62,267 nt of DNA from Catajapyx aquilonaris (lineage: Eukaryota), in the NCBI GenBank assembly GCA_000934665.2, contig KZ538557.1:1-62267 (forward strand). The letters are read 5' to 3'. Below are positions 4,729 to 61,899 of the stretch, piece after piece; position 1 is the stretch's first letter; each line of letters begins with the position of its first letter. Made by a program: the position numbers and the translations under genes. The notes under the pieces are model-generated. The model was not told where the DNA came from and did no database searches. It worked only from the letters and a program-made list of their open reading frames with translations.

Positions 4729-4887
4729 CTGTTGGCAGGAGAGGGCATGGAGTAGTTGTGTTTGGTGAGTAATTTGAGATCTCTCTACACTTACAGTTGG
4801 TAAACTTTGAAAAATCTTATCCATTTTTTGTGTGAAAACACGTGCACAATTGAAAATTTGATACAAAGGGCAACAAATCCAATAATT

Positions 4888-5134
4888 GAGGGGGTGAAAA
4901 TCAAAAACCGACAGCTCCGTCATGAACGTAACGGAGAAAAACCAGAAAAACCTACAGATTCTCGGTATATGTCAATGTAAATACCTGAATGTAGAGGCTA
5001 TTCCCATGTACATATGTAGGGTTTTTGATACCATATTCAGGTATTATGTAGTCCATGGCATGAGGAATGCATTTCCAGCGCTAACTCATTTTTTAAATTT
5101 TCTGAAGCTGTCGGTTTTTGATTTTCACCCCCTC
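4888..5134. mobile_element. Sola-like MITE
   Basis: 29-bp TIR GAGGGGGTGAAAATCAAAAACCGACAGCT; 4-bp TSD AATT at 4884-4887 and 5135-5138; GAG termini. Confidence 0.7.
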
Positions 5135-5715
5135 AATTGAAAATGTAGGGAAGGTCAACCTCAAGAAAGTCAGTTTTATAATAACTTATTTCTTCTTCTT
5201 TAGGCACGAAGACAACACTGTGTTCGCTTTCTTGATCTTTCTCAATCAATTTTGGCTTACGTTTGGTTCCCTGTTGGAAGTAATACTTTGGTCCTCAAGG
5301 TGCCAGCACAATTAAAATTACAAAAAATATAGTAACTGAATGTATATTTAGCAAGCAGTTCAGGCTGCATCACCCCAAAGAAACTAGCACATTGCAATGC
5401 AAAAGCCTATTCGACAACTGCATAATCTCACCTTCATATGACCTCTTAGCTCATTATTACATCATATTCACTTTACTTCAATAATACACTATAGTTTCAA
5501 TACTGCCAGTCATGTCCATTAACATCAATCTGTTTGCATCAGTTATCAGAGAAAAATATAATGAACAGGGCAAGGAATTCAGGCTTGGTTCCACTAAAAG
5601 GGCATGGCATTGTGAAGATGTAAAGCCATATTTCCTAATAATGATGACATATTTAATCGCGTATTTAATTCACATACCAGATTGATGCGAAAGGAGACAG
5701 ACTCTCTCCTCTTAC

Positions 5716-6257
5716 AGCCAGGTGTTGTGTTCTTGCGAACTGGGACATTACTTGCCTCTCCGCTCATACTCATTTGAATCATCACTCCCTTGTGATCATT
5801 CCTTTTTGCCAAGTCCAGCGGGGTACATCCGTCAATGTCCTTGGCTCCTGGGTCTGCCCCATACGAAATCAGAAGCCTCACTGCCTTTTCATGCCCAAGT
5901 CTGGCTGCATGGTGAAGCGGAGTACGGCCAAACAAGGACCTGGACAGGTTGACGTCCAGGTCTGCAAAATTCTCCTTGAGAATCTCCAGTACCCGATCAT
6001 GTCCCCCCATGGCTGCCCTGTGGACGCAGCTCTCCTTGAACACATCCAGGATATCCAGCACTTGTCGACCTCTGCTTTTGATCAACTCCTTCACCTTCCT
6101 TATGCGACCATACTCGAATGCAAATAGGATGTCCTCACAAGTCTGGGAAATTACATATATGTCATCTGATACCATTGTAATGATTAGCACAACACTACTT
6201 AAATCTACTGATAGTAAGAGCATCTTCCATCACCTCTTCAGGTCTTCCTGATGCCAT
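5716..6257 (-). CDS. Ankyrin-repeat protein (exons 6257-6234, 6142-5716); a separate gene or the N-terminal part of the 3644-4728 gene
   Basis: ESCVHRAAMGGH, RTPLHHAARLGHEKAVRLLISYGADP, CTPLDLA repeats. Phase-consistent splice MASGRPEE|TCEDIL; donor GTAAG at 5715. Confidence 0.7.
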
Positions 6258-40700: not shown

Positions 40701-42925
40701 CAAGTAAAAAGTCACCAAGGTTTACGGTAAGACTGGTCAGGTTTTACCGAGAGGCAAAGGATTCCAAAGCAACAAAAGGTTGCAGGCTGCTGTTCTATAT
40801 ATTTGAGGCCTTATCTATAGTCTATTGCATATTTTTCTCACAACAAGATGTTATTCGCATGATTCAAAAAAAATTGATACTGGTGATAACTCTTGTTTGT
40901 GTACCGAAGCAGTTTGGTGGAGTGGATAAGGTGTTCGACTGCTAATCGGGAGGTCCTGGGTTCGAGTCCTGGGGCCGGCAATCCTAACCATGGTTTTCCG
41001 TGGTTTCCCACGGTCCCCCCAGGAGAATTCCGGGATTGCTTCCTAAATAATAGGCCACAGCCGCTTCCTTCCATTCCTATCCCAAAAAGCGAAGTAAAAT
41101 GAAAGCAAAGAGTTCCAGTCAAAACAAATTGGGATGAACTCCACCCCCTAAAGAGCCGTCGGCTGATAACGGGGTATGAATTATTATTATTATTATTAGC
41201 TCTTGTTTGTAAATTAGAGCTTGTTCTGTTTGCAGGATTTTGCTTACCTGCACCCCCCACGAGATGATTACATTCGCCTCCGTTCCGTGGCATACCTGTA
41301 ATTGGAGGCTTGTTTGCTTAAAATGACAGACTAAAATATCTAAATGCCCTCCGAAACCTTATGCTTAATCACAGTGACAATTCTCAATATTGAGTTCAAC
41401 CACCCAATTTGTCTGCTCAAGGCCATGTCACAGCAGTGAAAACTTCCACCACCGGACAAGGCTATTTTTATACTATGATAGTAGGAAAAAGCTTTGTCCA
41501 GCAGTGGAAAATTTTATATTGAACTCACCAGTGTGAATTATCACCATAATTCAGCAGAAAGCCTCTGGTCAAAGCCAAGGATTTCCTGATTTTGGGATGT
41601 ACTGTGCAGTATAAGAGGGATTGTAGTGGTGGATAAATTTTTGAATTCCCTAGCATGCAGCTGTCCTCTGTGATTGCAAGAGAAACAATTCAGTCCACCA
41701 ACCACCAATATTACTCTTGGTGGCAATAATATCAATATTGCACACTTCGCCTCTTTCAGTGTTTGAAAGCTATTGTAACTACTGTAGAAAAACGTGGAAC
41801 AAACTTGTTCCGTATAATTTTCAAATTCTAATGTAGCCGATCTGAACTGGTTGAGTTGAATTGCTAATGACGTCACAAATATGAATATTAGCTCTATCAG
41901 TTCCTATTTGAACCAAAACCTGTCCATGATGAGACTCAAATACATTAGGTGTCAATCTTGCCAAATGGAAGAGAACGAGATTTTTCCAGACATTGTAGCT
42001 GTGTTCATCCACAATTACTTCAACATAATCTGAGCTGTGGAGACCACAATAAAATAATCTCTTATAACACCTTAAAAATAGGGAGGCGGAGTGGCGCTGC
42101 GGTAACATATGCGTTCACGGATGTTAAGGTCCCGGGTTCGATCCCAGCCCGGGGTTCCCCCCTTCATCTCGTGCAGAGTTGGGTCGTCTCTGGCTTCGTC
42201 TCAGGTGAAATTTCCGCTAGACATATCCACCCGGGGGAGTTCACAAACTATGTAGGCCTACCATGTTAGAAACTTTGCACCGCACATTGCACATCCCCTC
42301 CTGTCACCCTGCACGTGGGCCCGGGCGTCTCATGAAAGGTCCCGCGATGTACAAATGTACCAATGGTCAAAAATAAAGGCCCGTCCTTGTACCCAAGGGG
42401 TCAAAAGCACTACCCACAGTTGTTTTTTTTTTTTATCTTAAAAACAGAATTCTTAAATGTCAGCTGTCCAGTTAACACCATGACTATTTTTCCAGATACA
42501 TTTATGGCCCACTCTCAGGCCCGAAGCCCACACTTCTGCGGAAGATCCTGTCATCTGCCCCAGTGTTTGCATCTATAGCCCTGTGGCATGGTGGAGCTGA
42601 CTTTGTGCTTGTCTGGGCAGCTGCTAACTTTGCTTGCCTGACAGCTGAAAAAATTGCTGAATGGGCATGTAATACAGTTTATTGGCAACAGAAGATGCAG
42701 AATCTGTCCCCAACATGGTGCAGGCGCCTGAAAGCATCTCTTTATTCACTGCTTCAGTCTGCATCACTGTGTGCCACCTTCTTCTTCTTCACTGACCTCA
42801 ATGGAGGAATAATGTTTGTGCAAACTCTTATTGGGGAAGGAGTGGCATGTGCAACATTTCTAGGCTGTCTTTACTGCCTTGCCAATGTGGGGATGGATGT
42901 TCAAAATTGGGAGAAGGCATGTTAA
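37721..42925 (+). CDS. Hedgehog acyltransferase-like (HHAT/rasp, MBOAT family), paralogue 2, 499 aa; exons 37721-37838, 37907-38085, 38341-38541, 39133-39345, 40014-40226, 40278-40423, 42496-42925
   Basis: Seven phase-consistent GT-AG exons (1500 nt). Motifs MDESDFHW, YLLYLPYLPGGPIITY, SPKCVSRMYCFSDVWRHFDPGLHRFMVKYIYGP, IALWHG. Confidence 0.85.
40903..41197 (+). mobile_element. tRNA-derived SINE family C (copy 1)
   Basis: B-box GGTTCGAGTCC; body GGCCACAGCCGCTTCCTTCC; (ATT)n tail; TSD CTCTTGTTTGT. Copies at 50758-51098 (+) and 61186-61525 (-). Confidence 0.8.
42080..42435 (+). mobile_element. tRNA-derived SINE-like element
   Basis: GTGGCGCTGCGG A-box, GGTTCGATCCC B-box, T-rich tail. Confidence 0.55.
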
Positions 42926-43027
42926 AAGGCTTTGTAATGATGTAAACAATCCCAGTTTATAGTAACACTAGGCTGTTGATATATGAAACTACAAATAATG
43001 TGCCAAAAACAACAGAAGCAAGAAAAT

Positions 43028-44601
43028 TTACATGCTGACTTTGATGGCAGCTCTCAGTTTGGCTGATCTAGACCTTGGGTTTTTAGCAACCTCTGCTTCT
43101 GTTGGCAAAAGCACATGTTTGTACAGTGGCTGCCATTTGCGCTGCATTATCTGAAATAAAATACGCCAATAAATTTAATTTTATTGTACCTGTTTAGTGT
43201 CAAAAATGGTAATTGCTGATAAGATGCTACATACCTCTCCAAACTCTTTCTCTGAGTGCCACTTGGCTGCATTGTGGTACTTCTGAGACAATGTGTTGCT
43301 CACAGCCTCATCCAAGTCAATCCCTAGTAAATGACGTTTCACAATACGATCTTCCAATGAGTGGAAGGTCAGAACAACTATCCTGCCTCCCACTTTCAGA
43401 TACCTGAAGAAGAATTAGATATTAGATATAATTTCTGGATAAAGCTTTAATATCATCTCAGGTATTTGTATATTTAAGTATCAACCCAAGTTTTTTCAGC
43501 TCTCAGAGTTTTTCCACTTTGATTATTTATGCAGCAATTGATGCATGTGGGAGAGACAGATCCTCCAATGAGTTTTTTTTTTGTCATAACTGGTTACTGT
43601 ATCTCCAAAGTGCCACTTTTCCCCATTCACTTGAGCAATTGGCTCCTTGACGATGAGTAGGGGGATTTTAAGATGTCACTAATTTATAGAGCTGCATTTA
43701 TGCATCACCACTCATTAAAACACACAATTCTGTACAACAAATAGGGTGCACCATATGCGTGTTTGCAAACCTTAATAGTGGAGGCAGTTGGAAAAATCAG
43801 TTTTGTATGGCTCACCTGTAAGCCAAGTCCATGGCATGGCTGAGATGGTTGAGCTCATCATTAACAAAAATCCGGAGGGCCTGGAATGTTTTGGTGGCTA
43901 CATGACTTGGGCGCTGCAGTTTGTCCATGCGCACCTCATCGTCACCCAGTATGCTGGCAACTAAGGCGGCTAACTCCCCTGTGGTCTCCAGTGGCTTGAA
44001 CAAGTACCTGGCTTCTACAACAGCTCGTGCTATCTTCTTAGCATGTTTCTCTTCCCCATATATCTTAAAAATACGTGCCAATGACACTTCATCAGCATGG
44101 CGTATCACATCTGCTGCTGTCGGCTCCCCTGACTCTTGATTCATCCTCATGTCCAACGGACCATCACTTGACACTGAAAATCCACGGTCTGCATTGTCAA
44201 ACTGCATCGATGATGCACCCAAGTCCAACATTATCCCATCCAGTGATTCAGGAGGCACTCCATGGAAGTTAAGTAATGATGGTAAGTCATTAAATCGACC
44301 CAGGAGATGGCAGAAGCGACGGAATTCACAAGACAGGGCATGGCCATATTCATTAGTGACAGGGTCTCGATCAAGTCCATACAGGTCTATATCCTGGCAG
44401 GTTTCAAGAAGGTGCCGTGAATGGCCGCCAGCACCAAAGGTCATGTCTAGAAAAGTGCCACCCTTTGTTGGGTTGAGGGCAGATATCACTTCCATGGGCA
44501 TGACTGGCATATGTGGTAAGGGCTTTGATTTTGCTTTGGGCAAGGCAGTGGCACTGCATAAGCAGCGCAGTTGCTTGAAGGGTACTGTTGCACATTTTAA
44601 C
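43028..44601 (-). CDS. METTL15: Mitochondrial 12S rRNA m4C methyltransferase (RsmH/MraW family); exons 44601-43816, 43403-43235, 43150-43028; first coding exon unresolved
   Basis: HMPVM, DMTFGAGGHS, DLGASSMQFD, RGFS...GPLDMRM, TKTFQALRIFVNDEL, TFHSLEDRIVK, NPRSRSAKLR; phase-consistent introns. Confidence 0.92.
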
Positions 44602-45283
44602 CTGTGAATGAGTTGTTGTAAGTGTCAGGTTGACCAATGTAAACTTGCTATATTAGACTGTATTTTCTATTTGGAATAATTTAACTCAAAAATCTATTTA
44701 CAACATGCAAGTAGAACTCTTGACTTCAAGTCTTGGTTTTCAATAGCCCTCAAATATGCTGCACACAAATATCTGGTCCCATCATGTAGATTTAAGGTAA
44801 TTCACTCCCTCCACCATCTTGTTTTCATGAAATATCTGTACAGAATGGAACACAGATATGCTATGTGTAGTTTCTAGTGAGTGTGATACCTTACAACCTG
44901 AGAAGTAACCAGCATTAGAGAAGGTGTTTAAAATGTCCTCCACTGGCTAGTGGACTAATGAGAGTAAAAGTTGCAACTATTGGTAATGCTAGTCGTCAAA
45001 ACAGTGTACTGGTCATATGGTTCATGAAAGCATATATAGGGTGGTACACCTACATATGTTAACACCCTACTGTAAGGTAGAGTAGGAAGTAATGGATTAC
45101 TTGCTCCAGCCATTCCCACTGGTAGCCTGCAAGACTGGAGCATGCATTTATAACTAGAGCAAGCAATCAATCATGTTTCACCCAACCCCATTGTTGGTGT
45201 CCACTTAAGACACACTACACCCTGTATATTGAATTGATAATTGACAACAAACACTAACATTCTTGGTGGCAACTTTGTCGAAA

Positions 45284-45706
45284 TTATTTCTTGTTAGTAA
45301 CTGAAGCCTTCAGTTTCTCAACGAGTCCTTTCTCATCTTCCACAAGTTCATTAATGAAGTCTGTGGACATGATCTGTCCACATTTCTGGGCATCCAGGCC
45401 TGTGGCACAGGAGTTGTACAGCCTAGGGTGCAGCTTGGCGTGATGGTCTGTTGCTAGACGTGTCAGGCTGGACAGCTTCGCCCCACACTCCACCTCGTCC
45501 ACTCGGGTTGCTGCTCCCTGATGAAATGCCTCAGATATCTTCACACGTAGGTGCTCACCCAAATCCCTTAGAAATAAGAGTACAATTATAGCGACTCAAG
45601 CAAACCGTGCACCTCATGACCTATACACAAACCTGCCCTTCTTGTTGAGATCGACCGGCCACTTCTCCAGAAGCCTCAAATAGTTTCTGTACGTCGCCCC
45701 ACTCAT
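45284..45706 (-). CDS. UQCC2: Ubiquinol-cytochrome c reductase complex assembly factor 2 (exons 45706-45633, 45566-45284)
   Basis: MSGATYRNYLRLLEKWPVDLNKKGR|DLGEHLRVKISEAF... matches the UQCC2/M19 signature (Y..F/YL.L.E.WP.D..K.GRDLG..LR); 66-bp GT-AG intron. Confidence 0.88.
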
Positions 45707-46008
45707 TACATGCGCCTTAAACCGACTTCAACTCATGCATTCCCACTGATTCCCACAGAAATCCGGTCGCCATGCACATGTGTAATGACGCCTACTTCCT
45801 GTGCCCGGTGATGTTGTGCCGGGCCTACTCCCTGCGTCTTGTTGAAAATAGAATTCCAAATTATTGGGTACCTAACGACGTCAATTGTCAGTTGTTTGAC
45901 GATCTAAGTGGAGCTGAATTGTCGAGAGGATTCAATGTAGGCTTCTGCTGGTCTGACCTGCTGTCGGCCCTCTAGGAGCTATCCCCTTCACTAGTCTTCT
46001 CGCCCAGG
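45707..46008. promoter_or_regulatory. Putative bidirectional promoter UQCC2 / DLST
   Basis: 302 bp between divergent ATGs; CpG-richer than the flanks; ACTTCCTGT (ETS-like) near 45794, CATGCGC near 45709, GATGGCGGC (YY1-like) at the DLST ATG. Confidence 0.65.
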
Positions 46009-49000
46009 ATGGCGGCGATACTCAGCTCGTATTCTCGCTTCTCCCGCTGCAGCCGGATATTGGGCACTCCGGGCTTGCTGCAGGCTTGCAAGGATGGACA
46101 GGTAATAGTTATACCTCGTTGCTCACTGGAGGGTTCGGCCACGGTTTGTCGCGGGGCTCCGGACATGCCTGCGAAAGAGGGTGCACAGGGGTTATGGTAA
46201 AAGTAGCTGGGAGGGGGTTGGGATTCGCTCGATTTTATGAATGCAGGCTACGTCGGGCTATTACAAGGATCTGGGTTACGTCATTCCTTCGTGGAAACGA
46301 GGCAGCCCGGTGGATGATTTAGGTCGGGAGTGTGGGACAGGTGTGTAGGGGATGTTTAGCAGGAGGTCGTGAGGCTGCATATGGTGGCATTGAACCTGTA
46401 GGGTTACAGCACAATGTGGAGGATGCAAAGGAAGATGTCAGTTTATGTTAACCATGTGAGTGGGTGCAACAGGAAGAGGTTGACAGCAGTGAGAATAAAT
46501 GGGGTGTTGCGTAAAAGGTTACCAGTAGTAATTGTACATTGACTTTCAAATTGTCAAGGTACACAGATGCAGTAGTTGTGTACATAGGCCTAGACATACA
46601 CAATTGCGCTTGGTACAGTGACATGAAAGTAGACCATGCTGCATTTTCATTCAAAACCCTGGAGTCAGTGGAGTGTATGTTTGAGATGTTATATAAGCAA
46701 GGATTTCGAGTCAACAATTGCTTGCAGGTCTTACACTGGAAACTGCTGATATAAATTTTCCATATTGCAAACTGTTTTTTTTGTTGTTGGAAAAAGCCAT
46801 CTAACATGACATGTAAGGATCCTGTTATTATAGAGCTAACTGGTGATACCAAATATCACAAAATTTTAAGTCTAGAATGATGTGACACAGGATGATTCAA
46901 CAAGCATTTTAAGTTTTCATAGAGGCACGTTACATGACGCCGCTTCGAGGCGGTTCGGAAAGGCGCGCAGCTTACAGAGCAGCATCTCTGGCATGTAACA
47001 TGTGAAAATGCGCATCAACTGAACTGAGCAGCCAGTGAGCCGCAGCCAGTTGAACAACCATTTACCTGCGCATCAAAAGGTTTGATGCCCACCACTCACC
47101 TTTTAGAGCAGTGGTTCCCAACCTTTTCGCCATGACGCCCCCCTTTTCGTTTTCACCAAACACTCACGCCCCCCCCCCCAATAAATTTTAGCTTTTCTGA
47201 ACCGCTCAGAACCAACCCAAACCGGCAATTCAGATCTATTCTCCAAGGCCGTGCTTCAAACTGATTCAAACCTTCAAATAAGGTNNNNNNNNNNNNNNNN
47301 NNNNNNNNNNNNNNNNNNNNNNNNNNNNNNNNNNNNNNNNNNNNNNNNNNNNNNNNNNNNGGGGGGGGGGGGGGGGGGGGGCGCAACTAAGCTCACGCAT
47401 AGGGGGAGGGAGTTGCGAGACCTTGTGTATACGGCCGTGGAATGGGGCAACTGAATGGGGGCACAACAAGCTACAAAAAAAACTGCTATCGGGCAATAGC
47501 AGTTATCCAAGTGACCCGGATATTTGGAACACCCTGTATATGTTCCAAATTCTGTGGGTACCATCACATTACCAAACACGTGAACTTCTCTTTTAGCTAC
47601 ATGACCCAAGGCAAAGGCCAGGGCATTTAAATGTTATATTAGAACTGCCAACATGCAATACTGAATGTTTAATAAATTGGCTTACATCCATATCAGTAGA
47701 AATGTTCTGGACTCTCTTGGTTCATGTTGTTCAGGTTGGTGTTCATGATTGCACCAAATTTTAGTTGGACAGGAGTACACCTAATGTACACCTTTCCCAT
47801 TCAGCCACTTGGCAGTGGCCTCTGCCCCTCTCCTTTTTAGACTTTTTGTCATCATTGAAAAAAAGTCTTATAGAAAGGCTCTGTCCATCCATCTGTCTGT
47901 CTGTGGACAGGTATCAGGGCCTAAACTGCAAGAGATAGCGACAAACGGTTGTCAGATTCGGATTAAGCGTGACCTAAATAGGTTTCATGGTCAACTTCCG
48001 GTGACCTGCCACTTGTGGTTTCCGGGTTCACTATCAGTATCTGCACAAGTCTATTTTACAGGCGGGTTATTGTTGGTTTCGAAATTAGTTTCCCTGGATT
48101 CCTGACCATGTGTTTCGGGGATTTAGCCAAGGTTTTACCTGGCACTCTAGCACAGGGGCTGTGGAATTAATTCCTGATGTTGGACATGTTTGCAATGCAC
48201 GCCCTCTGCCACCATGAGAAAAAGTCTACTATAATCACGCTCATGTGATTTGCCAATCTTGTTTTCTCTATCCCTTTCCTCACCTTCAGGATACTAGCAG
48301 GACTTGTGAGTGTAAGCAACATTTCTGCTGATACAGATGTAAGCTATATTGTGAAACACAGTGTGAGTCTTACCTTGTGGAGTGAACTAAGCCCATGTCT
48401 GTGTCAGTGGAAGTTTTGGGTACTCATCTGGTTCATGTTGGCCACCATGGTTGCAAGGCATATTTTCTTCCATATGCATATTTTCTTCCTTTACCTGGAT
48501 AGGATACATGAGAATTAGCTAGATCCAGGGGATTCTGTGAAATTTGCTACCACTCATAAATGTCGAGAATATCGGAGCAGCATTGTGGTGCAGTGGTTAG
48601 CATACTGTCCACTTTCCACTTCTTAGGTCCTGAGTTCGATCCCCATATTGGATGGAGGACACTTGTTACGTGGAGAAAGTTTTGATGGGCTGTTGCCATA
48701 TTCATATTGTTTTTCTGATGTATACAGGGTGGACCAACTTCAAGTGTCGTTTTATAACGGCGATTAATAGCAGTGATTTTACGATGACGTAGCAGCGACG
48801 TGTAAAATGTCCCACTTCGGCGCCATCGAAAATATTAGCTGCCAATAACAGCACACATGTAATCAACCCTGCTGCTGGGTTAACCTGGAAAAAAGGAGGT
48901 GCACACATGATCTGCGATGCGCCTGGGTGAAATGGGTGACGTCCAAGGCACCAGATGGACCTGTAATGCAAGGGGGAAGCCTGCAAACGAAACACAGCTA

Positions 49001-51029
49001 ATATTTTCGATGGCCCCGAAGTGGGCCATTTTACACGTCACTGCTACGTCAATCGTAAAGCGCTTCTATTAATAGCCATTATAAAACGACACTTGAAGTT
49101 GGTCCACCCTGTATTGTCATTCACTGCTTACAAATACTTGCCATATAAGCATGAATGGAATGTGGCAGGAATCCAAATTTTTATGTGTGTCACATCTAGA
49201 TATTTGTGAGACACCAGGTGTTCCATTATATACTTTTATAGCAAATGTTAATCTGTAGGCTAACACAAAATGCAGGATATCTAAGTGGAAACACCACTAT
49301 CTTAGCGAACTAATGCCCTATAAAATTCAAGGCCACATTTGGGAATCAGTGCTAAAATCTTGGGGAATTTCATGTGCATGCCCAGGATTGTTTCACTGAT
49401 TATATTATATGCAGAATTATACATGTAGGTATTGTGTTCAGAAATTGTGGAGTAATTCAAATATGGATGTAATAAAAATATTTTGAAGACAATTTATGCA
49501 ATTCATGAGTAAAAATTGGGTTAAACACTCGCCCCCTTGCTATTGGCACACCTAAATAAGCAATGCGTTGATGTCATGTAAGTGACAGGATATTTCTGTG
49601 TAGGATTCTTCAAGTGCTCTGTTCATTTATACAGGGTTCGGAAATTTAATCTGTCTTCGCTTTGGATGGTAGAGGGCAAAGAGCTTATACTAGGAAGAGT
49701 GGAAAAAACAGCTGGTAGCATAGCAACCGTGTCGCCAATCGACTGACCTGCCACCTGGCGAGTCGACAGCGAAACTCGATACTGTATTGTACAATACGGT
49801 AGATCGAGGCAGTGCCGGAAATATGGCAATAAAAGCCGCAGAGGTTGGAAATAAGCTATAAGCACTCGTATACTCTCGTTGGTGTAAAAATTGACGACAA
49901 AACACGATGTAGAACACCTGTGAATAAAATACCATCACGAAAAGCAAATTGTTTGCCAGAAGTTTATTGCCACTACAATAATCCCACACTCTGCGCTATA
50001 CAATACACACCACGGTAGGCTACTGTACACACTGGTCATGATGCTGAACGTGGTCATGACAGGAAGATGTACCCCCCGCTGCTATGTCCATCTTGTGGCG
50101 GGACGGGCTTGCTGTTCTTCTACCGTGAACTCGAGAGCCGTGGAGGGTCCTTTGGTAATGAAAAGAATGCGATCCGAGACCCCGTGCGCGAACAGCAGTA
50201 ATAGCACTCGGCACCCAACCCCCGACCGTCTACGCCCCACTATGCCGGCCTTGGAACTTGTTCTATTTCAAAATTCGAATGTGATTTCTAAGCAACGAGG
50301 TGATTATTTGGATTGTTAGGTGCAGGTTGGCAAGCTGCGTCGAATATCAGTTTCGGGTCCAAAATTAGTGCCTTAACTGCATACGACCTCATATTGGTCA
50401 GTTTTTAGATTTATAACTCTTAATTATGTGCCTCTTGATATTAAATCAACACAGTTTATTGAAATTCCTCTCGACAGCACTCGACGGTGCCGCCTAGTGG
50501 CGCTGCGTAGTGAGCCAACAGCAAAACACGTTGGCCAAACAACTGGCCAAAAAGTGGCGACGCTTGGAAACCCTTTTTTGCACTCTTCCTAGTATAAGCT
50601 CTTTGGTAGAGGGGTTCTAGGCGATCATTTTAAGTATAGGTATCGTGTGTCTCCGAAGCATAGTTACCGAGATAATGTGCTTCAAACACAAAGTATACAA
50701 TTTTCTGGCAGGTATGTGTCCCTCCATCCAACCTTACCTTTTTCATTTATATTTAAGACCGAAGCAGCTTGGAGGAGGGGATATGGTGTCCGACTGCTAA
50801 TCGGGAGGTCCTGGGATCAAATCTCAGGGCTGGCAACTCTGACAGTGGTTTTCTGTGGTTTCCCACGGTCCTTCCAGGGAAATTCCGGAGTTGCTTCCGT
50901 AATTAATAGGCCACAGCTGCTTCCTTCCATCCCTATCCTATCCCAAAGGGCACAGTAAAATGAAAGCAAAGAGTTCCAGGCAAAACAAACTTCCCCCCTA
51001 AAGAGCCGATGGCTGATAACGGGGTATGA

Positions 51030-51098
<69 letters not shown>

Positions 51099-54000
51099 TA
51101 AGGTGTCATCATGCAATTTAAATTTAAAACGCAATCCCATTACGCGTAGCAGACAGTGGCCTAGGCGATGACAGTGTGGTAGCGATGAGGCTGTATCCGA
51201 AACATAGAAGCTGGTATAATGCACTTTTTATTTAATGCCAATTATTTTGGTAACTAACTTTGGAGAGCCATGATATCTATACTTAAAATGATCATCTAGA
51301 ACCATTCTGCTATCCCCCAAAGCGAAGGTAGAATAAATTAACGAACCCTGTAGAGTGAAACCGCAGAGTCACTCTGTTCTACAAAAATTTTCTGCTTTGA
51401 ACAGATATTTGTTATGTACTGCAGAAGTGCATTGAAAATCCTGCTCCAGACCCAAACAAAAGTTCTGCTTGTTCGCTGTATATGACTGAATTCCCTTATC
51501 CCAGTTGAATGAAAATATTCTTTTGGATTTGATAGATCTGCAAGTGACAATTTTTGCACTTGAAATAGACTTGGACAACTTTTTTAATTAAATTATAATA
51601 TTATTTTGACGTGTCAAATTGTCATTATTAGTTTTGTGACATTGAAAGGTCAATTAACTAGGTGATGTATCACTTACAGGTGGTGAAGCAGCTGAAGCCC
51701 TGGAGAAGTTCTGCAGGTACTTACAGTATGATCCATATCTTAAAGAATTGAGTTACCTGCACAAGTGCAATGATTTGAAATGAGTTTTTTCCAGCCCTTC
51801 CACCTTTGAGGTCACTGCAGAGTTTATCATCATGCAGAGTGTGGAGAGTGTGAGTTGAAAAAGTAATATTAGTTGAAGCAAAGCATTGTAATCATGGTAT
51901 TTTATTCTTGCAGTCAAGAAACACATGGAAATATCAGCCCTCTGTTTACTAGCCAATCAAGTATTACCACCTCTGCTGCCTTGTGTGAGTTGGAGGGGTG
52001 CATGACCCTGCATGTGTTTAGTTTGAGAGCCATGCATCATGTTAATGCCATTCACGTTTTATTTCAGGGGATGAAGTGAAAGTGGTGATGGTGCCTCCCT
52101 TTGCTGACTCGGTTTCCGAAGGAGATGTCAGGTGGGAAAAGGGTAAGGAAGATTGTTATTAATTTTTCTTTATTGTTGAAATATGTGAAAGGCTTAAGGC
52201 CATTTCACAAAAAAAAATGTCGCGCGGCAAACGGCGCGACTTGCGGCAAATTTTTATTTATATTTATTGTTGCCAATTGTTGGCAACAATAAAATTTGCC
52301 GCAAGTCGCGCCGTTTGCCGCGCGACATTTTTTTTGTGAAATGGCCTTTACTGAGATTCATTTTTGCAGCTGTTGGTGATACTGTGAATGAGGACGAAAT
52401 TGTGTGTGAGATCGAAACTGACAAGGTGAGTGTAGGAGTGGACCTTGAACAATTCTAAAAACCTGCTCATAATATACTATTTTCAGACATCTGTACCGGT
52501 TCCATCACCAGGAGCTGGGGTAATTGAAGAACGGTTAGTTGAAGATGGAGCCACTGTTCAGAGTGGTGCCCAGCTGTTCAAGATCCGCATTACAGGTAAA
52601 TTGTTTAGGCTTTGCATTGATATAATAGTGCAGAGTTTTCCCTTTACATGAAGCTGCTTTATGTAAAGGAAAAACTGAGCCAGAAGGCGATACTTGTGCT
52701 TCTCCATTAATTTCCACCACTGTACTTCAAACATGTCAAGAACCTTCTCTCATCTGTGAGGAAGATCTGGTCATAATATAGTCTTACACGACTCCACCAA
52801 TGTGGCAGAAAAAACTTTCCCAAACCTGGCCTCTGTAACTAAGAAACTGCTTGGACTTGTTTACGTGACATTTCATCACCATCAGGAGCAACCCACTTTT
52901 TCCCACCCCAAGAGATTGCATTTGCAGCTCACCCACAATGATCAATTTGATACCAGTTTCATGCAACAAGGTACTTGAAAAAATTAAAGTGTCCTGAGGC
53001 ACATCACATATTTTATTTTTAAATTCATTAGGAGATACTCATCAGTCCTACGTAAGTGTTGCAAAAATACTGCATGCATAATTATGCAAACTATGAAAAA
53101 GTATTTTTATGGCAATTCTTGCTCCATAAAGTACTAGTATGAATATGTTCAAAGTTATGATTTTGAATTTTTGTGTGGTTCTCCAATGCTTTGGGATGTA
53201 ACATTCCGTGTATATTCGACTTTAGCAAGATCCCAAACCAAATGTGCAGATATTGTTGCAGAATCTACACAAATTTCATTCTGGCTGATGATGGTTAACA
53301 CCTGTTCAAGTCAATATTCCATATCAGCATGCATGTCAAGATACAGCTTCAAATTTTTTAAATTCTATTGAACATGAACTGGTATCTTGACTGGTGTACA
53401 CTTATTACATTTTTGGATGGTTATAGGTGTGGTAGTTGAGAGGGGCAGCATTTCTCCAGGTTGCCACATTAACAACTTGCATGCTGGTATCATATGAATG
53501 ACATCTGTGCATGTACTATCATCACAGAAATGGTCGGTACACTTGTCAATGGCCAGCCTACCCCAAAGTGTCTGGACCATTTCCGTGCTGCTAATATAGT
53601 GTTTAAGAAAGTTTTATAGCCCTGGCCTGAACCTCATTTATGTGTGACTTCAGACCTCTGGATAGGCAGGCCTCGTATACCTCCCCGGAAGCTCTGACAT
53701 CATCATACCCATGATCATTGCAGAGAAGACTTTAGATTTTATCTTCATCTCAATTTTCAAAGCACTGATTAACCCCTTCTCCCCCAGAATCTAGGTGATG
53801 ATATTCGCTTCAGTTTAACTTGCACATACTCTGAAGATAAGGACAAGATATTTTACAAATAATAACAGCTATACAAGTTTACAGATTCATGCTCTACAGT
53901 CTACACTATGCATGTGTTTGGAACAATTTTCCATGTCAAGAAGTCGCAATATCAATTTCCACAAAAAAAATTCCATAAAAACTCGAGTAAATTACTACCG

Positions 54001-54546
54001 GCCAACTGTAGTTAGGCTGATTTAATTATTAAATATGTTCAAATATTCGTAATAACAACCTTGAGAACTGTGCTAGACGAATTTGTTGAATTCGTCGTCC
54101 TTCGCGAGAATTAAATTAATAATTACTGCGGCTTGCCTCTCACCTCGGAAAACTCCAAAATTGATTTAATTCTTGCAAAGTACGACAATCTCAGCAGATC
54201 TAGCACTGTTCTCAAGGTTGTTATTCCGTATATTTTAACATATTGAAAATAAAATTAGTGTCACAATTGGCCAGTAGTAATTTGATTTTGAGTTTTTACG
54301 GCGATTGTTTGGGAAATTAATTTTGTAACTTCTAGACATGGAAAATTGTTCCAAACACATTCATAGTGTAAAGCAGTGGTTCCCAATCTGTGGGTCATGG
54401 AGCCTTTTCCGGGGGGTTGTGTGGTGGGCGTGGTTTATTTTTACTTGCAATCAATTTTATAGGAAATTTCACCACGAAGGTTTTTTAAAAACACTTACTT
54501 GTACATATTTTAATATGTCTACACTCCCACAAGCAGAAGTGATAGG

Positions 54547-54620
<74 letters not shown>

Positions 54621-57600
54621 ATCAAAGCTCTCACAATCATAAAATCTAGCTCATGGCTGAGGCTAGGGTTGTTTGTTTGGATAGGTGTAATGGCATAGGT
54701 TAATTATTAATGGGTAGAATATTCACTGGTTTGTGAGGAATGGCAGTGTCCATTGAATTCTTCCGAATGGCTAGAATGTTTGCAGGTTGGTGTGAGGAGT
54801 CGGCGTCTGGAAGTTTATACTTGGGCTCTGGGTGCTGTGCAGAAATACAAGGTTGGCAGATATCTCGGGCACAGTAATGCATAGGTTGACACCGGTAGTC
54901 ATTCTTGCAAGGGTGTCTGCCTCTCTCTCTGTCCTGCACAGCACTTGGAGTTCGAGTGTGGATTTCCATATGCTGGTTCTTCTCCCTGGTTCTGAATATC
55001 TGGTCTGTTTTGCTAGCAAATGAACCATAAGCGTAAAATTTCAAGTCAAATGAGATTTTGACAAAAATCCGCATCGAACAGTCGCTCCCTCTAGTGGTGA
55101 GTAGGGAAGCTCCGAAGACAAATTAAGATGGCAGCCCCCATAGCGATGAAACCACGCGCAAGCCAGGTTTTTGTGTTTACGACCTGAGCGGAACCCGCCC
55201 CAGGTGCCAAGGGTTATGGGAGGGTGAGTGGGAGAGAGGAGCACAAGAAATCAGACCATACGGCCAAGTGATGCTTGGAATGATGCCCATCGCGGGATAC
55301 ATCCATACCAGTTCGAGACTTACCAAGACTGGTAGTGTCGCGAAGTATAATTCAGAGGGAGACAAGGAATACGCATTGCCCACATCTGGGCCGCATGTGA
55401 CGGCGTCGGAGGCAGGGCCAAGTGATCCATCCACTTTCTAGTTCAAAAATGGACTTCATGGCTAAGCTAATTTCATTGGGCAGCAGGCCCATGCAGGTTA
55501 CCGGGATCTCTGGGCGGCGCTAGCAACTCGATATTACAGTAGCGGATTGACCTGATGGAATTTGCTTATGCGGTGTCAGATTCAAAAACCGACCACGTTT
55601 TTGGAATCAGGAAGTCGTCCTTGATCTTTGAAGCCCAATATGCGAACTCACTGAACCCTTCCTTTATGAGAGTTGGTGTTTTTACAATTTATTTTTGCAA
55701 TCTTGGGAAGGTAGGTGTACACGTACTGATGTCTTATTTAATTTGCAATTTCCAGGAAAAGGTGCAGCCAAAGCAGCTGCTCCAGCAAAGGCCAAACCAG
55801 CTGAAGCAGCTGCCCCACCACCCCCACCTCCACCTCCACCTGCAGCAGGAGCTCCACCACCGCCACCGCCGCCGCCCCCACCTCCTCCTTCAGCTGCACC
55901 TCCCTCCTCCCCACCTCCTCCACCTCCTACTCCCCAGGCACCTGTATCATCAATGCCAGTGGCTGCCATCAGGCATGCCCAATCCATTGAAGCAACAACC
56001 GTTCGGGTTCCCCCTGCTGACCCTACTAAAGAGATCACAGGAACACGTACAGAGCAGAGGGTGAAGATGAATCGAATGAGGCAGAGGATTGCTCAGAGGC
56101 TCAAGGAGGCACAAAATGTGAATGCCATGCTGACCACCTTTAATGAGATTGACATGAGGTGAGAATAATTGTCTTATTTTGGAATTTTACAAGTATGATG
56201 TTGAAAACTTGACACCCCTATGAACCAGTCTTGCCCTTGGATGCTCTACACTGCATGTTTCATAATTGAGCCTGTATCAATGTTGCTGAAAATCTCTTTC
56301 CACTCTCTTCTGTTGTCTCACTTTCTTGTGTGGCAGTGAGTGACAAACATTGCCGGAATGCTAATTTAATGGCTTTTTCAACAGTATGATGATTCCAGTG
56401 CATTCACAGGAGCGAGTTTTACTGCAGTCTTTCTCCTGATACTGATGTGAGCTAAATTCTGAAATAAACAGTGCATCTAAATATGCTTATGAAGCTGAGG
56501 TTATCACAAGTGTTGTTTTATTAGTGGATGCTGCCATGAACTATTGATTTACGATACTTAAAATCTAATTTAAAAGTGCAAGTCAAGTTGATTTTTACAT
56601 ACCGTAAGCAATATCATTTAACCCTTTCGTCCCCAGTTATACCGCCATCGCCTAGATTTTCGTTTCTGTTAAACTTACATGTACTCTGAAGATAAAAAAT
56701 AAGATATTTTACCAATAATAACACCTATACCAGAGGTTCCCAAACTTTTTGAGTCGCGGAGCACTTTTCAGGAGAGATATTCATGATGGAGCACGAACAT
56801 CATCGACGGCGTAAGCAGAAAAAAATTCTGGGGCAGTGGGGGTGGGGGGTGGGGGCAGTGCCAAATTAGTATATGGGAAGGTGAGGGGCGAAAGGGTGCC
56901 GCAGGCGAAAAATTTTTGGGTTCAAGGTCACACAAGCTATTGAGAGATTTGAATGGGTATAGCTTATTGAAGAATTCCTTTTTTTCCCAACCTCTTCGCA
57001 CAGCACTTGGAGAAGCTTCGCGGAGCACAGTTTGGGAAACTCTGACCTATACTTACACGTTCATGCGCTATGCTATGTATGTGTTTGGAACAATTTTCCT
57101 TGTCTAGAAGTCCCTAAATTAATTTCCAAAAAGATCGCTGTAAATTCCATCGCCTAGATTTTCGCTTGCACTTACTCTGAAGATAAGGACAAGATATTCC
57201 ACAAATAATAACAGATACACTCACACATTCATGAAAAACACAATGTATGTGTTTGGAACACATTTCACTCGTCTAGAAGTCCCTAAACAATTTTCAAAAG
57301 TAAAAGCGTGAAATTCAAGCACTACTGGCCAAGCCTTAGGCCATCGCCTAGATTTTCACTTACACTTACTCTGAAGATAAGGAGAAGATATTTTACAAAA
57401 TAATAATAGCTATACTTACACGTTCATTGAAAATACATGGTGATTCTCTCGAATGGAAACCCAAACATTCCTCAATAACTTTTTAACTATGGTATGGTTC
57501 CCGGTGAAAATTGACATGTACTTACCTTGTATCATGCCAAACAAGGTCTGACTAAAGAATATACCAAAAGTGGTAACCTCCAGCATCCAGGAATTTTTTA

Positions 57601-60600
57601 ATGCGAGTCTGCATCCGTTGCCTTGAGATTCCCCCTTGGCAAGCGGGCGGGCGGGCTGTAGATTGAGCCATCCCCGCCGCCAGTCGGCAGGAGTCTTCGG
57701 TAAAGATGTAGACTCACATTAAAAAATTCCTGGATGCTGGAGGGGACCACTTTTGGTATATTCTTTAGTCAGACCTTGTTTGGCATGATACAAGGTAAGT
57801 ACATGTCAATTTTCACCGGGAACCATACCATAGTTAAAAAGTTATTGAGGAATGTTTGGGTTTCCATTCGAGAGAATCACCCTGTACTATGAATGTGTTT
57901 GGAACAATTTCCCTCCTCTAGAAGCTCTTAAATTAGGCTGGGTTCACACTAGGCGTTTTTGTCGCGCGACAAAAACGCCGCGACAAGTCGCTCAAAACAG
58001 AACACATGTAAACTTATGGTGCGTGACACACCACGACTTCTTTCCTGCTTGGTCGTCGCAAAACGCAGCATGCTGCGTTTTTTCTGTCGCTACAAAAACG
58101 CCGTGACAAAGTCGCTGAAAACTGAACACATGGTAATCAGTTGGGGCAGACACACCTGGCGACAAAGTCGCGTGAAAAGTGTTTAATTTTGACTATTGTG
58201 GAACGGTAGTTGCTAAGGGTCAGGTTGGCAACGCTGCTCGGGTTGCATCAGTAGGGGAAGCAAAACGCGCGACAAAAACGCCTAGTGTGAACCTCGTGAG
58301 GCGTCAGCGACGAAAACGCGGCAACAAAGTCGCAGGCGACAAAAACGCCTAGTGTGAACCCAGCCTTAATGTCCAAAAAGATCGCTGTAAAAAATCCCAA
58401 AATTGAGAACTGCCGGCCAACTGTTAGGCTGATTTAATTATTAAATACGTTAAAATATACGGAATAACAACCTTGAGGATAGTGCCACACGAATTCGCTG
58501 AAATCGTCATATACGTCCAGAGAAATAAATTAATTTGGGAGATTTCCGAAGTTACAGGAAAGCCGCAGGTAAGAAATAATTTATTTCTCGCCAAGCATGA
58601 CGATTTCAGCAAATTCGTGTGTCATTATTATCCAGGTTGTTATTTCGTATATTTTAAAGTATTTCATAATTATTAAATCAGCCAAGTAGTTGGCCGGAAG
58701 TACTCAAATTTCGAATTTTACAGCGATATTTTTGGCAATTGATTCAGGAACTTCTAGATGAGGAAAATGGTTCCAAATGCATTCATAGTATTTTTCATGG
58801 ACGTGTAAGTATCGCTGTTATTTTGTGTAAAATATCTTGTCCGTACCTTCAGAGTACTCGTAAGTGAAAAACTAGGTGATGGCGGGTATAACTGGGTGCA
58901 AAGGGGTTAAAGGATACTTCGTAAGCAAGCCATTATTGTGGCCCAGGAGTACATCCATGGGAAACAATAGACTGACATGGGGAGGTGTAGATGGCCGAGA
59001 TGGTAACGTCTCGGCTTGCTGAGTGAAAGGCCCCAGGTTCGATCCCCGCCTGGGGAACTTTCCTTTCACCTGCGTCAGGAGGGTCTCTGACCTGCACCAA
59101 GGAGGTGTCTGGCAACCTAACCTCCTGGGGAACAGCACGTGACCCCTTTACTAACATTGCCCTTGCACCAGTGTTCCCTCCCCAAAAATCCCTATCCCTA
59201 CCCTACATCCTTGACTCCTTGCACCGGTGAATGAAGGTAATATATGAAAATGGAGTGAAATGGTGGTATTCCACCCACCTAAAAAGGCTCAGCCTTATTA
59301 CGGGGTAACGTATATATTTTTTAAAAAAAAGCCCTGACATACTGCTTTCTGCTTGCTTTTATTTAAAAATTTCTTAATTTTGTTTAAACCTGAGAGCTAC
59401 AGTACCATTGTAGTATAGGTGACATGACCTTAACCTGTTTGATTAGTGCATGTACTTTTTTGACACTATTTAAGGCTTGCTAGTAAATTTACTGGAAGCA
59501 GAAAAGTGGCAGAAACTACTTGTTTGAGATATCAAGTCTTCCTGCAACTCACCTGCATTATTCCCAAATAGATGAGTGCAAGAGCAACATTTTATGTTAT
59601 ATGAATCATAATTATTAACACTAATCATGATTATAGATAGGACATGGGACCAGTTTAACTGATAGTAATTGAATGTTTACTTGTCAGTTATCTTCACATG
59701 CATTGTTGCCTCCTTCCAAGATATGTGCAGTCAGTGGGGAATAGTAGATTAAGTGAAGCTGGCAACAGGGCAAGTGATTCATGTTTTATGTCCTCAAAAG
59801 CATGGCCTTGCTCTGTTTGGGAGGTCATTTCATGCCACTGGACTGGTCCTTTTTGCATTCTGACAAAAGCCTTGCACAATTTTCTATGTGGAGAGAAGAG
59901 TTGGGACCAACCCCCGAACACTACCCCTATAATCTTATCTTATTGCCTGCCAGGGCGTTCTGCATGAGGTGCTCACTTGAGAGCGCCATGAGACTGCCTT
60001 TCACTGCTACATTATGTGGAAACCCTACCGGACCGCGCTGAACTTTATAGGTACACAAGGGAAGCACTACATTGGGGGACCCAACATGGTCGCCGGCGGC
60101 CATGTTGGGCCCGCATGTAGCGGCTTCCCTTCTACCTAAGTTCAGCGCGGTCCTGTAGGGTCGCCACAAAATGTAGCAATGAAAGGCGGTCTCATTGCGT
60201 TCTCAAGTGAGCACCTCATGCAAAATGCCCCGGCAGGCGATAAGAGATAGTGACCAGACCTTAGTATTATAAGACCATGGTTGGGACAGTCATGCATGAA
60301 TTTTTTCGAACTGAAATTTCCACCTCAATTTTATTGAAGTCTCAAAATTTTATTGTGGTATGATTTACTATCTTTCTGGGAATTATGAAAACATACAAGT
60401 GCACAGATGTAGCAAGGTTGCCCAGATCTTTCTCCTTATAATGCCATTATTGAGAAGGGCCATTTGACCTTCAAGTAGGGCATATGAAGTTTTGCCTGTG
60501 TATTACAATAGCACATTCGAGAGAGTTAATTCATGTTGCACAGGAGCCCAGGCAGGAATATTATCAGTGTTGGTCCCAGGTTGGCAGAGTCATGAGTGGC

Positions 60601-60858
60601 TGTGTATTATGAAGTTGAAGTTATGTACTGCTTTTGGCTAATATTAATTTTTCTTTCAGCAATGTGATGGAACTACGCAAGAGCCATCAGGATGCTTTTG
60701 TGAAGAAATATAACATTAAGTTTGGATTCATGTCTGCTTTCCTGAAGGCATCTGCCTATGCTCTTCAAGATCAACCTGTGGTTAATGCTGTTATTGATGG
60801 CGGGGATATCGTCTACAGGGATTATGTCGACATCTCTGTGGCTGTGGCTACTCCCAAG
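46009..60858 (+). CDS. DLST: Dihydrolipoyllysine succinyltransferase (2-oxoglutarate dehydrogenase E2), partial; exons 46009-46101, 48290-48305, 51680-51716, 51914-51984, 52068-52142, 52370-52425, 52487-52595, 55756-56158, 60660-60858; continues past the window
   Basis: [19 protein letters not shown], lipoyl site [58 protein letters not shown]. All phases are consistent; the small exons 2-4 are less certain. Confidence 0.92.
47835..48228 (+). mobile_element. Helentron/DINE-1-like non-autonomous element
   Basis: Subterminal inverted TAGACTTTT / AAAAGTCTA, a 5' stem-loop, and a (GTCT/ATCC)n microsatellite. Confidence 0.55.
48725..49111. mobile_element. Tc1/mariner MITE family B (copy 2)
   Basis: TA|CAGGGTGGACCAACTTC...GGTCCACCCTG|TA; inverted relative to 29855-30259. 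Confidence 0.85.
49677..50605. mobile_element. P-element-like non-autonomous element
   Basis: 25-bp TIR CAAAGAGCTTATACTAGGAAGAGTG; CA...TG ends; 8-bp TSD GTAGAGGG. Confidence 0.75.
50758..51098 (+). mobile_element. SINE family C (copy 2) with an expanded (ATT)n tail
   Basis: Similar to 40903-41197. Confidence 0.8.
52197..52347. mobile_element. PIF/Harbinger palindromic MITE
   Basis: TTA|AGGCCATTTCACAAAA...GTGAAATGGCCT|TTA. Confidence 0.8.
53773..54373. mobile_element. piggyBac-like element fragment (same family as 56622-58905)
   Basis: TTAA|CCCCTT start; shares the CTCTGAAGATAAGGACAAGATATTTTAC subunit. Confidence 0.6.
54547..54617. repeat. (AAT)n microsatellite
   Basis: Direct reading. 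Confidence 0.95.
56731..57044. mobile_element. hAT MITE
   Basis: CAGAGGTTCCCAAACT...AGTTTGGGAAACTCTG; 8-bp TSD ACCTATAC. Confidence 0.85.
57436..57884. mobile_element. Tc1/mariner palindromic MITE
   Basis: ~170-bp near-perfect arms; CAGGGTG-type end; TA TSD. Confidence 0.85.
57936..58365. mobile_element. PIF/Harbinger MITE
   Basis: TTA|GGCTGGGTTCACACTAGGCG...CGCCTAGTGTGAACCCAGCC|TTA. Confidence 0.85.
58979..59320 (+). mobile_element. tRNA-derived SINE family D (copy 1)
   Basis: GATGGCCGAGATGG A-box, GGTTCGATCCC B-box; inverted copy at ~61545-61899. Confidence 0.8.
59939..60244. mobile_element. Palindromic MITE
   Basis: ~80-bp imperfect arms CTTATTGCCTGCCAGGGC...GCTACATT / AATGTAGC...GCCCCGGCAGGCGATAAG. 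Confidence 0.65.
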
Positions 60859-61182
60859 GTAAGGTATATTGTATTGGATATTTTAGCTTGTTAGATACAT
60901 TCAGTAGGGAGGTTTTGTGTAATATGGAGAAGAATGAAATGAATCTTATGCCCAGATCTTTCTTCTGGATGGGAAGGTTTCCATCAACAAGTTTGAAGTG
61001 ACATAGATACTTTGCTTCTGCCCGTAAATACATGGCATTTTTTTCTTCCCAAGGTTGGCACTTTTGGTCAAAATGAGCTAGTTGCCATATGGTTAACATA
61101 AATAGTGTGAAAACTGCACAAGTACATAGTACTTTAAAAATTGAGATGCACATGGTGGAAATGTCAAAGATTGCTCAATTAT

Positions 61183-61249: not shown

Positions 61250-61525
61250 TCATACCCCGTTATCAGTCGGCAGCTCTTTAGGGGGGAGTTTTTTGTTTTG
61301 ACTGGAACTCTTACTTTGCATTTTTACTTCGCTTTTGGGGATAGGATAGGGATGGAAGGAAGCGGCTGTGGCCTATTATTTTAGGAAACAACCCCGGCAT
61401 TTACCTGGAGGGACCGTGGGAAACCACAGAAAACCACGGTTAGGGTTGCCGGCCCCGGGGATCGAACCCAGGACCTCCCGATTAGCAGTCGGATACCTTA
61501 TCCCCTCCGCCACCACTACTTCGGT
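61186..61525 (-). mobile_element. SINE family C (copy 3)
   Basis: Reverse complement of 40903-41197; TSD GATTGCTCAATTATTTA. Confidence 0.8.
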
Positions 61526-61544
61526 GATTGCTCAATTATTTATT

Positions 61545-61899
61545 GATTTATTTTATTTATTTTATTTAAGTTACCCCATGGTAAGGCAGAGCCCTTTTAG
61601 GGGGATGGCACACCACCATAAGTTTTCCAGTAACTTTGTACTATTTTTTCTTCGCTCACCGATGCAAGGAGACGGACATGGGTAAGGTTAGGGATTTTTG
61701 AGGAGGGAACATGGGGTGCAAGTGCAAGGTCTGTAAAGGGGTCAGGTGCTGTTCCCCAGGAGGTTAGGTCGCCAGACACCTCCAAAGTGCAGGTCAGAGA
61801 CCCTCCTGACGCAGGTGAAAGGAAACTCCCCAGGCGGGGATCGAACCTGGGGCTCAGCAAGCCAAGACGTTACCATCTCGGCCATCTACACCTCCCCCA
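61545..61899 (-). mobile_element. SINE family D (copy 2)
   Basis: Reverse complement of the 58979 head; TSD GATTGCTCAATTATT. Confidence 0.8.

Follow-up and report, generated by a model that had tools for sequence, protein, structure and literature searches.

The genes for the UQCC2 and METTL15 homologues of Catajapyx aquilonaris lie in tandem on the minus strand of contig KZ538557.1 (positions 1 to 62,267; this whole stretch of 62,267 nucleotides is referred to below as the window), and are probably expressed as one spliced dicistronic mRNA, in which the start codon of METTL15 is assembled by removal of an intron that lies between the two cistrons. A preliminary description of this region had offered either a first exon shared by both genes or a dicistronic mRNA as the explanation for an apparently startless METTL15; the latter fits the sole transcript contig that bridges the genes, whilst the junction belonging to the former was not seen.

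A transcript contig bridging UQCC2 and METTL15

Positions 42300-47250 were compared with the assembled contigs of a single public run, the kind of which is not on record; six records lie in this region, four of which are listed. Read on the minus strand, all four listed joints are GT..AG and fall at borders of coding exons, the METTL15 contig ends 21 nt past an AATAAA, and records 1 to 3 match the window with zero mismatches, which is how cDNA from the same species would behave. A contig spanning two genes does not amount to proof of a single transcript, as k-mer assembly merges transcripts that share at least 31 nt, and contigs lose rare forms, so that rare isoforms beyond the four listed joints are possible.

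Record 2 (822 nt) aligned to 45941-45632, 45565-45255 and 44597-44397, each joint being flanked by 201 to 311 letters on either side, and the joint shifts given by the alignment tool place its introns at 45632-45567 and 45258-44602 (Table 1). From the UQCC2 leader it continues across the two UQCC2 exons and past the stop codon of UQCC2 (TAA, 45286-45284) into METTL15, of which it covers 201 nt. The first of its joints, 45633 to 45566, had been anticipated in the preliminary description, as had the coding part of UQCC2 exon 1, which begins with the ATG at 45706 and closes at CAG/GT (slashes mark splice sites) in phase 2, in agreement with the predicted AG/GT border and length of 74 nt. The second joint uses a donor, AAT/GTTAGT at 45259/45258, that lies 25 nt past the UQCC2 stop codon and is joined to 44601. 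The spliced product reads ...GCCACCAAGA ATG TTA AAA..., in which AT is 45260-45259 and G is 44601, meaning that the METTL15 start codon is interrupted after its second base by the intercistronic intron; its context is CCAAGA/ATGT (the slash here preceding the start codon), with an A at -3.

The large METTL15 exon does begin at 44601, behind the phase 2 acceptor TCACAG/G, and it carries no usable in-frame ATG upstream of its HxPV motif, both as previously described: the open frame extends back to 44624, and no in-frame ATG occurs before the one at 44510, inside HMPVM. The proposal that METTL15 lacks a start of its own does not stand, given that the overlooked donor at 45259/45258, when spliced to 44601, creates an in-frame ATG. 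The gene model is thereby corrected to one in which METTL15 has a normal start and presequence behind an intron that begins in the 3' untranslated region (UTR) of its neighbour, where gene-finding programs would not search for one. On our reading of the sequence, this ATG would lead in unspliced RNA to no more than a short intronic open reading frame (ORF) of about 30 codons, so the full METTL15 protein depends on the splice from 45259 to 44601.

The spacer between the UQCC2 stop codon and the METTL15 ATG is 23 nt (45283-45261), and the two ORFs are in different frames. Manual reading past the stop codon in the UQCC2 frame finds another TAA after 9 more codons. No read-through fusion is therefore formed, as the ORFs are separated by the UQCC2 TAA, differ in frame and are followed by a further in-frame TAA.

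The preliminary observations on the 682 nt between the genes were borne out. On the minus strand, 45283-44602 contains no AATAAA or ATTAAA, the only related motifs being a TATAAA at 45152, previously placed near 45150, and weak variants; the absence of such a signal for a separate UQCC2 3' end was counted in favour of a dicistron. There is no CpG-rich promoter in this interval (GC 0.38, 2 CpG, CpG observed/expected 0.08), and the sole CpG-richer spot, likewise counted for a dicistron, lies upstream of UQCC2, which is compatible with one promoter for both genes. The TATAAA and a 47-nt candidate exon proposed earlier (45147-45101) both fall within the intercistronic intron. In the one run, contigs left 44624-45121 and the candidate exon uncovered, which is not equivalent to absence.

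Table 1. Coordinates of UQCC2, METTL15, the divergent DLST-like gene and the region between them
Feature	Position	Strand	Description	Evidence
DLST-like exon 2	51680-51716	+		loose end of record 3
DLST-like intron 1	46102-51679	+	5.6 kb, acceptor ...CTTACAG/G at 51679/51680	
DLST-like exon 1	45922-46101	+	ATG 46009, donor CAG/GTAATA at 46101/46102	contig record 3
Putative bidirectional promoter	45707-46008	.	between UQCC2 ATG and DLST-like ATG	CpG content; function inferred
UQCC2 exon 1	45941-45633	-	leader 45941-45707, coding 45706-45633 (74 nt)	contig record 2 and sequence
UQCC2 intron 1	45632-45567	-	66 nt, GT..AG	contig joint and sequence
Exon common to both genes	45566-45259	-	remaining UQCC2 coding sequence, spacer, AT of METTL15 ATG	contig record 2
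Intercistronic intron	45258-44602	-	657 nt, GTTAGT...CACAG	contig joint (skip 657, CT..AC after shift 4) and sequence
Large METTL15 exon	44601-43816	-	G of ATG, presequence, HMPVM, DMTFGAGGH, most of PF01795	records 1 and 2, profile search
METTL15 intron	43815-43404	-	412 nt	contig record 1
METTL15 third coding exon	43403-43235	-		contig record 1
METTL15 intron	43234-43151	-	84 nt	contig record 1
METTL15 last exon	43150-42662	-	stop TAA 43030-43028, 3' UTR 366 nt	contig record 1

The encoded proteins

The large METTL15 exon matched PF01795 (MraW/RsmH-type) with an E-value of 6.2e-64 and a score of 216.8 bits (cut-off 27), and in an alignment of 13 sequences the residues D52-H60 of its SAM-binding motif, DMTFGAGGH, were invariant or nearly so, as was H30 nearly so. 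Its identity to arthropod proteins named as METTL15 homologues ranged from 51 to 61%; in the libraries searched, the best named matches were all arthropod and none exceeded approximately 60%. The spliced product, of 359 amino acids with 30 residues ahead of HMPVM, is in line with the size of arthropod homologues (350-372 amino acids, 24-45 residues ahead of HxPVM). Judged by profile and alignment, the downstream gene is a member of the METTL15/RsmH (MraW) N4-cytosine rRNA methyltransferase family, which, in keeping with source names such as '12S rRNA N4-methylcytidine methyltransferase', methylates the small-subunit mitochondrial rRNA. The 30-residue presequence contains six K/R and no D/E, a composition that fits matrix targeting. 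A targeting exon shared with UQCC2, as suggested in the preliminary description, is at odds with this presequence, which belongs to METTL15 itself, the two products having no protein sequence in common.

Several METTL15 homologues (P0075, P0101 and P0116) are labelled in their sources as, for example, 'receptor-type tyrosine-protein phosphatase mosPTP-1' or '...gamma'; PF01795 is their sole domain, save that P0116 also lists PF01189, and these names are probably a propagated misnaming. At its 3' end, the METTL15 3' UTR (42662-43027, minus strand) is overlapped by approximately 260 nt by the last coding exon (42476-42925, plus strand) of a convergent MBOAT-family gene.

The spliced UQCC2 product has 118 amino acids, and its alignments to named UQCC2 proteins span 114-119 residues, end to end, with E-values of 2.8e-32 for the 'UQCC2-like' protein of Hyalella azteca and 3e-34 for 'mitochondrial nucleoid factor 1' of Strigamia maritima. 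Exon 2 alone retrieved 89 library proteins at E <= 0.001 and matched PF20180 with an E-value of 3.9e-5 and 24.5 bits, below the curated cut-off of 27.9. The best named matches in the libraries searched were again arthropod, none of them above approximately 45% identity. On these alignments the upstream gene is a member of the UQCC2/CBP6/mitochondrial nucleoid factor 1 family, the function of which is linked to complex III deficiency and cytochrome b expression in a title from the reference list of PMC8455400. The 235-nt leader of UQCC2 has five upstream ATGs, and its ORF has five internal ones. At 45711-45704, minus strand, the last base of a minimal upstream ORF (ATG-TAA) is also the first base of the UQCC2 start codon (ATGTAATG).

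Conservation of the gene pair

In an ant-like metagenome contig (L002), the UQCC2 ORF occupies 28-399 and the METTL15 ATG lies at 386, giving a 14-nt overlap, and neither gene has an intron; the UQCC2 of this contig is 83% identical to an ant model, and four ATGs lie between its start codon and that of METTL15. In two distant lineages, represented by the window and L002, the METTL15 ATG is thus found within 25 nt of the UQCC2 stop codon.

Gene models with both PF20180 and PF01795 were also retrieved. Three occurred among the 120 METTL15 relatives listed (Timema monikensis, Carabus blaptoides and Microctonus aethiopoides), and both domains were present in all five long relatives of insect UQCC2 (Trachymyrmex, Odynerus, two Vespula and Mischocyttarus), making eight fused two-domain models in the three insect orders Phasmatodea, Coleoptera and Hymenoptera. 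These are most simply explained as annotation artefacts of two abutting genes on the same strand, the two proteins having been fused probably because the METTL15 start sits behind an unlooked-for intron in the 3' UTR of its neighbour. A search for fusions with exon 2 of the window UQCC2 found none among 89 candidates, and UQCC2 proteins of the representative library were all short (63-207 amino acids).

A metagenome scan yielded 80 METTL15-type loci, 78 of which were at 39-47% identity, and UQCC2 was found at one of the 80 (L002). The distribution of these ORFs and models indicates that the UQCC2-METTL15 pairing is old. The arrangement is not universal, since CG14683 of Drosophila melanogaster is listed with pug and not as dicistronic with a UQCC2 gene.

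Two further observations concern the surroundings of METTL15 in these genomes. A formate-tetrahydrofolate ligase gene (PF01268, E 4e-177) is encoded convergently to METTL15 at 1798-3084 of L002, minus strand. The pug gene encodes an enzyme of the same formate-tetrahydrofolate ligase type, so the METTL15 homologue nested in D. melanogaster pug has kept the neighbour that it has in L002, with a change in orientation.

Proposed expression of the two cistrons

According to the dicistronic reading, transcription would start in the region of approximately 300 bp that UQCC2 shares head-to-head with a DLST-like gene, and the transcript would pass both UQCC2 exons and the UQCC2 stop codon before ending at the AATAAA near 42683 (21 nt before the METTL15 contig end). 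Removal of the 657-nt intron, with its donor just past the UQCC2 stop codon, would build the METTL15 start codon (AT/G) a short spacer downstream of that stop, and METTL15 would be made as a separate 359-residue protein with a mitochondrial presequence of its own. Single molecules carrying both ORFs are likely; such bridging molecules would then be the main or only source of METTL15, which would be translated by internal initiation or by re-initiation near the UQCC2 stop codon. Termination-coupled re-initiation would fit the short distance between stop and restart that the two lineages have in common, and inspection by eye upstream of the restart site found no calicivirus-type UGGGA motif in the window or in L002. 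An internal ribosome entry site, or a cryptic promoter, may serve METTL15.

Several points weigh against this interpretation. The sole run available consists of assembled contigs, which are able to merge overlapping transcripts, and a gap of 11 nt separates records 1 and 2, the two contigs that cover METTL15. Leaky scanning to the METTL15 ATG is made unlikely by the five ATGs of the leader and the five within the UQCC2 ORF, and re-initiation after an ORF of 118 codons is normally inefficient. Comparative data add to these difficulties: a eukaryote-like METTL15 locus with an intron (L001) showed no UQCC2 in its 6847 nt, whilst in D. melanogaster, CG14683 is listed as sharing a promoter with pug, and not as dicistronic with a UQCC2 gene, and only 45 of the 159 dicistronic loci appear to be exclusively dicistronic, such that monocistronic alternatives are common (PMC4528330, available text).

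That the pair constitutes an obligate, ancient arthropod dicistron, with METTL15 made only by ribosomes that have just finished UQCC2, through termination-coupled re-initiation no more than about 25 nt from its stop codon, its AUG gated by splicing in this lineage and DLST co-regulated through a bidirectional promoter, is a stronger proposition that we regard as unlikely. If it were true, supply of the methyltransferase of the mitoribosome small subunit would be tied to that of a cytochrome b/complex III assembly factor. Should the dicistronic reading itself hold, a deeply conserved pair, with products in the same organelle, would join the short list of animal two-gene mRNAs, and would offer a simple natural system for the study of second-cistron translation after a first cistron of 118 codons.

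Alternative explanations

A serious rival, and a possible one, although we think it clearly less probable than a dicistron, is that the genes give rise to overlapping but separate mRNAs: METTL15 would have its cap site inside UQCC2, in exon 2 or intron 1, UQCC2 would end separately, for instance by polyadenylation in the 657-nt intron, and the assembler would have merged the two. Contigs cannot resolve overlapping transcripts, the numerous upstream ATGs would hinder translation of a second cistron, a TATAAA variant is present at 45152 in the intercistronic intron, and, according to PMC4528330, dicistronic loci of Drosophila often have monocistronic alternatives. Against this, no contig continues unspliced beyond 45255 and none branches at 45259 or 44601, an argument that is weak in view of the loss of rare forms, and the interval lacks AATAAA and ATTAAA. 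The linkage, moreover, has been kept across several insect orders, and the METTL15 ATG lies no more than 25 nt from the UQCC2 stop codon here and inside the UQCC2 ORF in L002. Given these ATG positions, both lineages would need a METTL15 promoter located within coding sequence.

It is very unlikely that METTL15 starts in the 47-nt exon at 45147-45101, or that 44601 receives a spliced leader in a trans-spliced operon. An ATG at 45147 and a donor, AAG/GTAATC, are indeed present in the sequence of the candidate exon, and spliced-leader trans-splicing occurs in some crustaceans. The junction from 45101 to 44601 that had been proposed for this exon is nevertheless missing from the contig run, where the acceptor at 44601 is cis-spliced to 45259 and neither a foreign leader nor a loose end is present there; without the AT from 45260-45259, moreover, the large exon would have no start before HMPVM.

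The favoured model of the preliminary description, in which UQCC2 exon 1 is alternatively spliced to 44601 to give both proteins a common N-terminal exon of 25 residues, is the least probable of all, for although the two sites agree in phase and the joined frame is open, the junction from 45633 to 44601 is not among the four joints (the only ones seen from these sites being 45633 to 45566 and 45259 to 44601), the chimeric N-terminus would add two acidic residues and 24 extra residues relative to the actual one, and the homologues have short, independent presequences.

Comparison with known systems

In arthropods, dicistronic mRNAs form a recognised class, to which UQCC2-METTL15 would add a further pair; FlyBase release 6.04 annotates 159 D. 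melanogaster pairs as 'gene_with_dicistronic_mRNA', according to the available text of PMC4528330. As with the Drosophila dicistronic genes, two unrelated conserved proteins would be encoded in tandem on one processed arthropod mRNA, with translation of the second dependent on internal initiation or re-initiation. The pairs in Drosophila often have no obvious functional link, whereas UQCC2 and METTL15 are both mitochondrial. The unusual detail is the assembly of a start codon across the intercistronic intron: unlike in the Drosophila cases, the second start codon arises here from the excision of an intron whose donor lies 25 nt past the first stop codon.

The METTL15 homologue of D. melanogaster, identified as such by one source name, is CG14683, which has its promoter and 5' UTR in common with pug (PMC4528330 File S2, rows 148-149, in the part available). 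It has no promoter of its own and relies on that of a neighbour, as is proposed for the METTL15 of the window, but its partner is pug, the shared part is a non-coding exon and no dicistronic mRNA with UQCC2 is involved. In the two cases compared, METTL15 hence appears to use the promoter of its neighbour, UQCC2 in the window and pug in D. melanogaster.

MOCS2A/MOCS2B (Mocs2/CG42503) is encoded on a conserved bicistronic mRNA, as described in the available parts of PMC2276209 and PMC4528330, and shares with the present pair a deeply conserved two-ORF arrangement in which the ORFs abut or overlap. The products of MOCS2 are subunits of one enzyme, whilst UQCC2 and METTL15 act in different steps, the former in complex III assembly and cytochrome b expression and the latter in methylation of the small-subunit mitochondrial rRNA. 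Co-transcription of neighbouring eukaryotic genes, as proposed for this pair, is a feature of the spliced-leader operons of nematodes and tunicates and of polycistronic green algal loci (PMC1657053 and PMC7896298, available parts). Unlike in spliced-leader operons, no trans-spliced leader is found here in the one run, the join at 44601 being a cis-splice.

Among the titles and abstracts listed by literature searches, none concerned the nuclear UQCC2-METTL15 pair. The pair is not mentioned in the available parts of PMC2276209 and PMC13670568, nor is it named in the available text of PMC4528330, the full pair list of which (File S1) may bear on this.

The divergent DLST-like gene

On the plus strand, a gene diverges from UQCC2 that, by the domains of its predicted product, is a DLST-like 2-oxoacid dehydrogenase E2: its N-terminus is basic and serine-rich, and lipoyl and 2-oxoacid dehydrogenase catalytic domains are found downstream. 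Of contig record 3 (2172 nt), one part aligned to 45922-46103 and the loose end matched 51682-51711 exactly; the resulting junction is canonical (GT..AG) only when read as plus strand. Three other readings are rejected on the strength of this canonical junction: a minus-strand gene upstream with its last exon at 45972-46103, an AT-AC intron, and a transposon insertion with a 6-nt duplication.

The UQCC2 and DLST-like start codons are 302 nt apart. Judged by the 5' ends of their contigs, the two transcripts share 20 nt (45922 to 45941). GC content between the two ATGs is 0.50, with a CpG observed/expected ratio of 0.75; this ratio is 0.57 over the window and 0.08 in the intercistronic interval. 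A putative bidirectional promoter shared by UQCC2 and the DLST-like gene is the simple reading of this region. All three genes around it, UQCC2, METTL15 and the DLST-like gene, encode mitochondrial proteins. The DLST-like gene continues over approximately 52070-61000, plus strand, and its first intron holds a run of N near 47.3 kb and repeat-like sequence.

Other features of the window

A search of the whole window against Rfam gave no matches. A second MBOAT-like gene, at approximately 25-30 kb, may form a tandem pair with the MBOAT-family gene that overlaps METTL15. Ankyrin-repeat exons were found at 3644-6229 (minus strand), and an ORF at 20014-20376 (plus strand) encodes a THAP domain (PF05485, E 1.8e-5) that is possibly transposase-derived. 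Repeats of a tRNA-like SINE type occur at 40838-41317 (minus strand), 50817-51227 (minus strand) and 61350-61685 (plus strand), the translations of which share a 24-residue string, and long AAT/ATT microsatellites translate as poly-N or poly-I runs.

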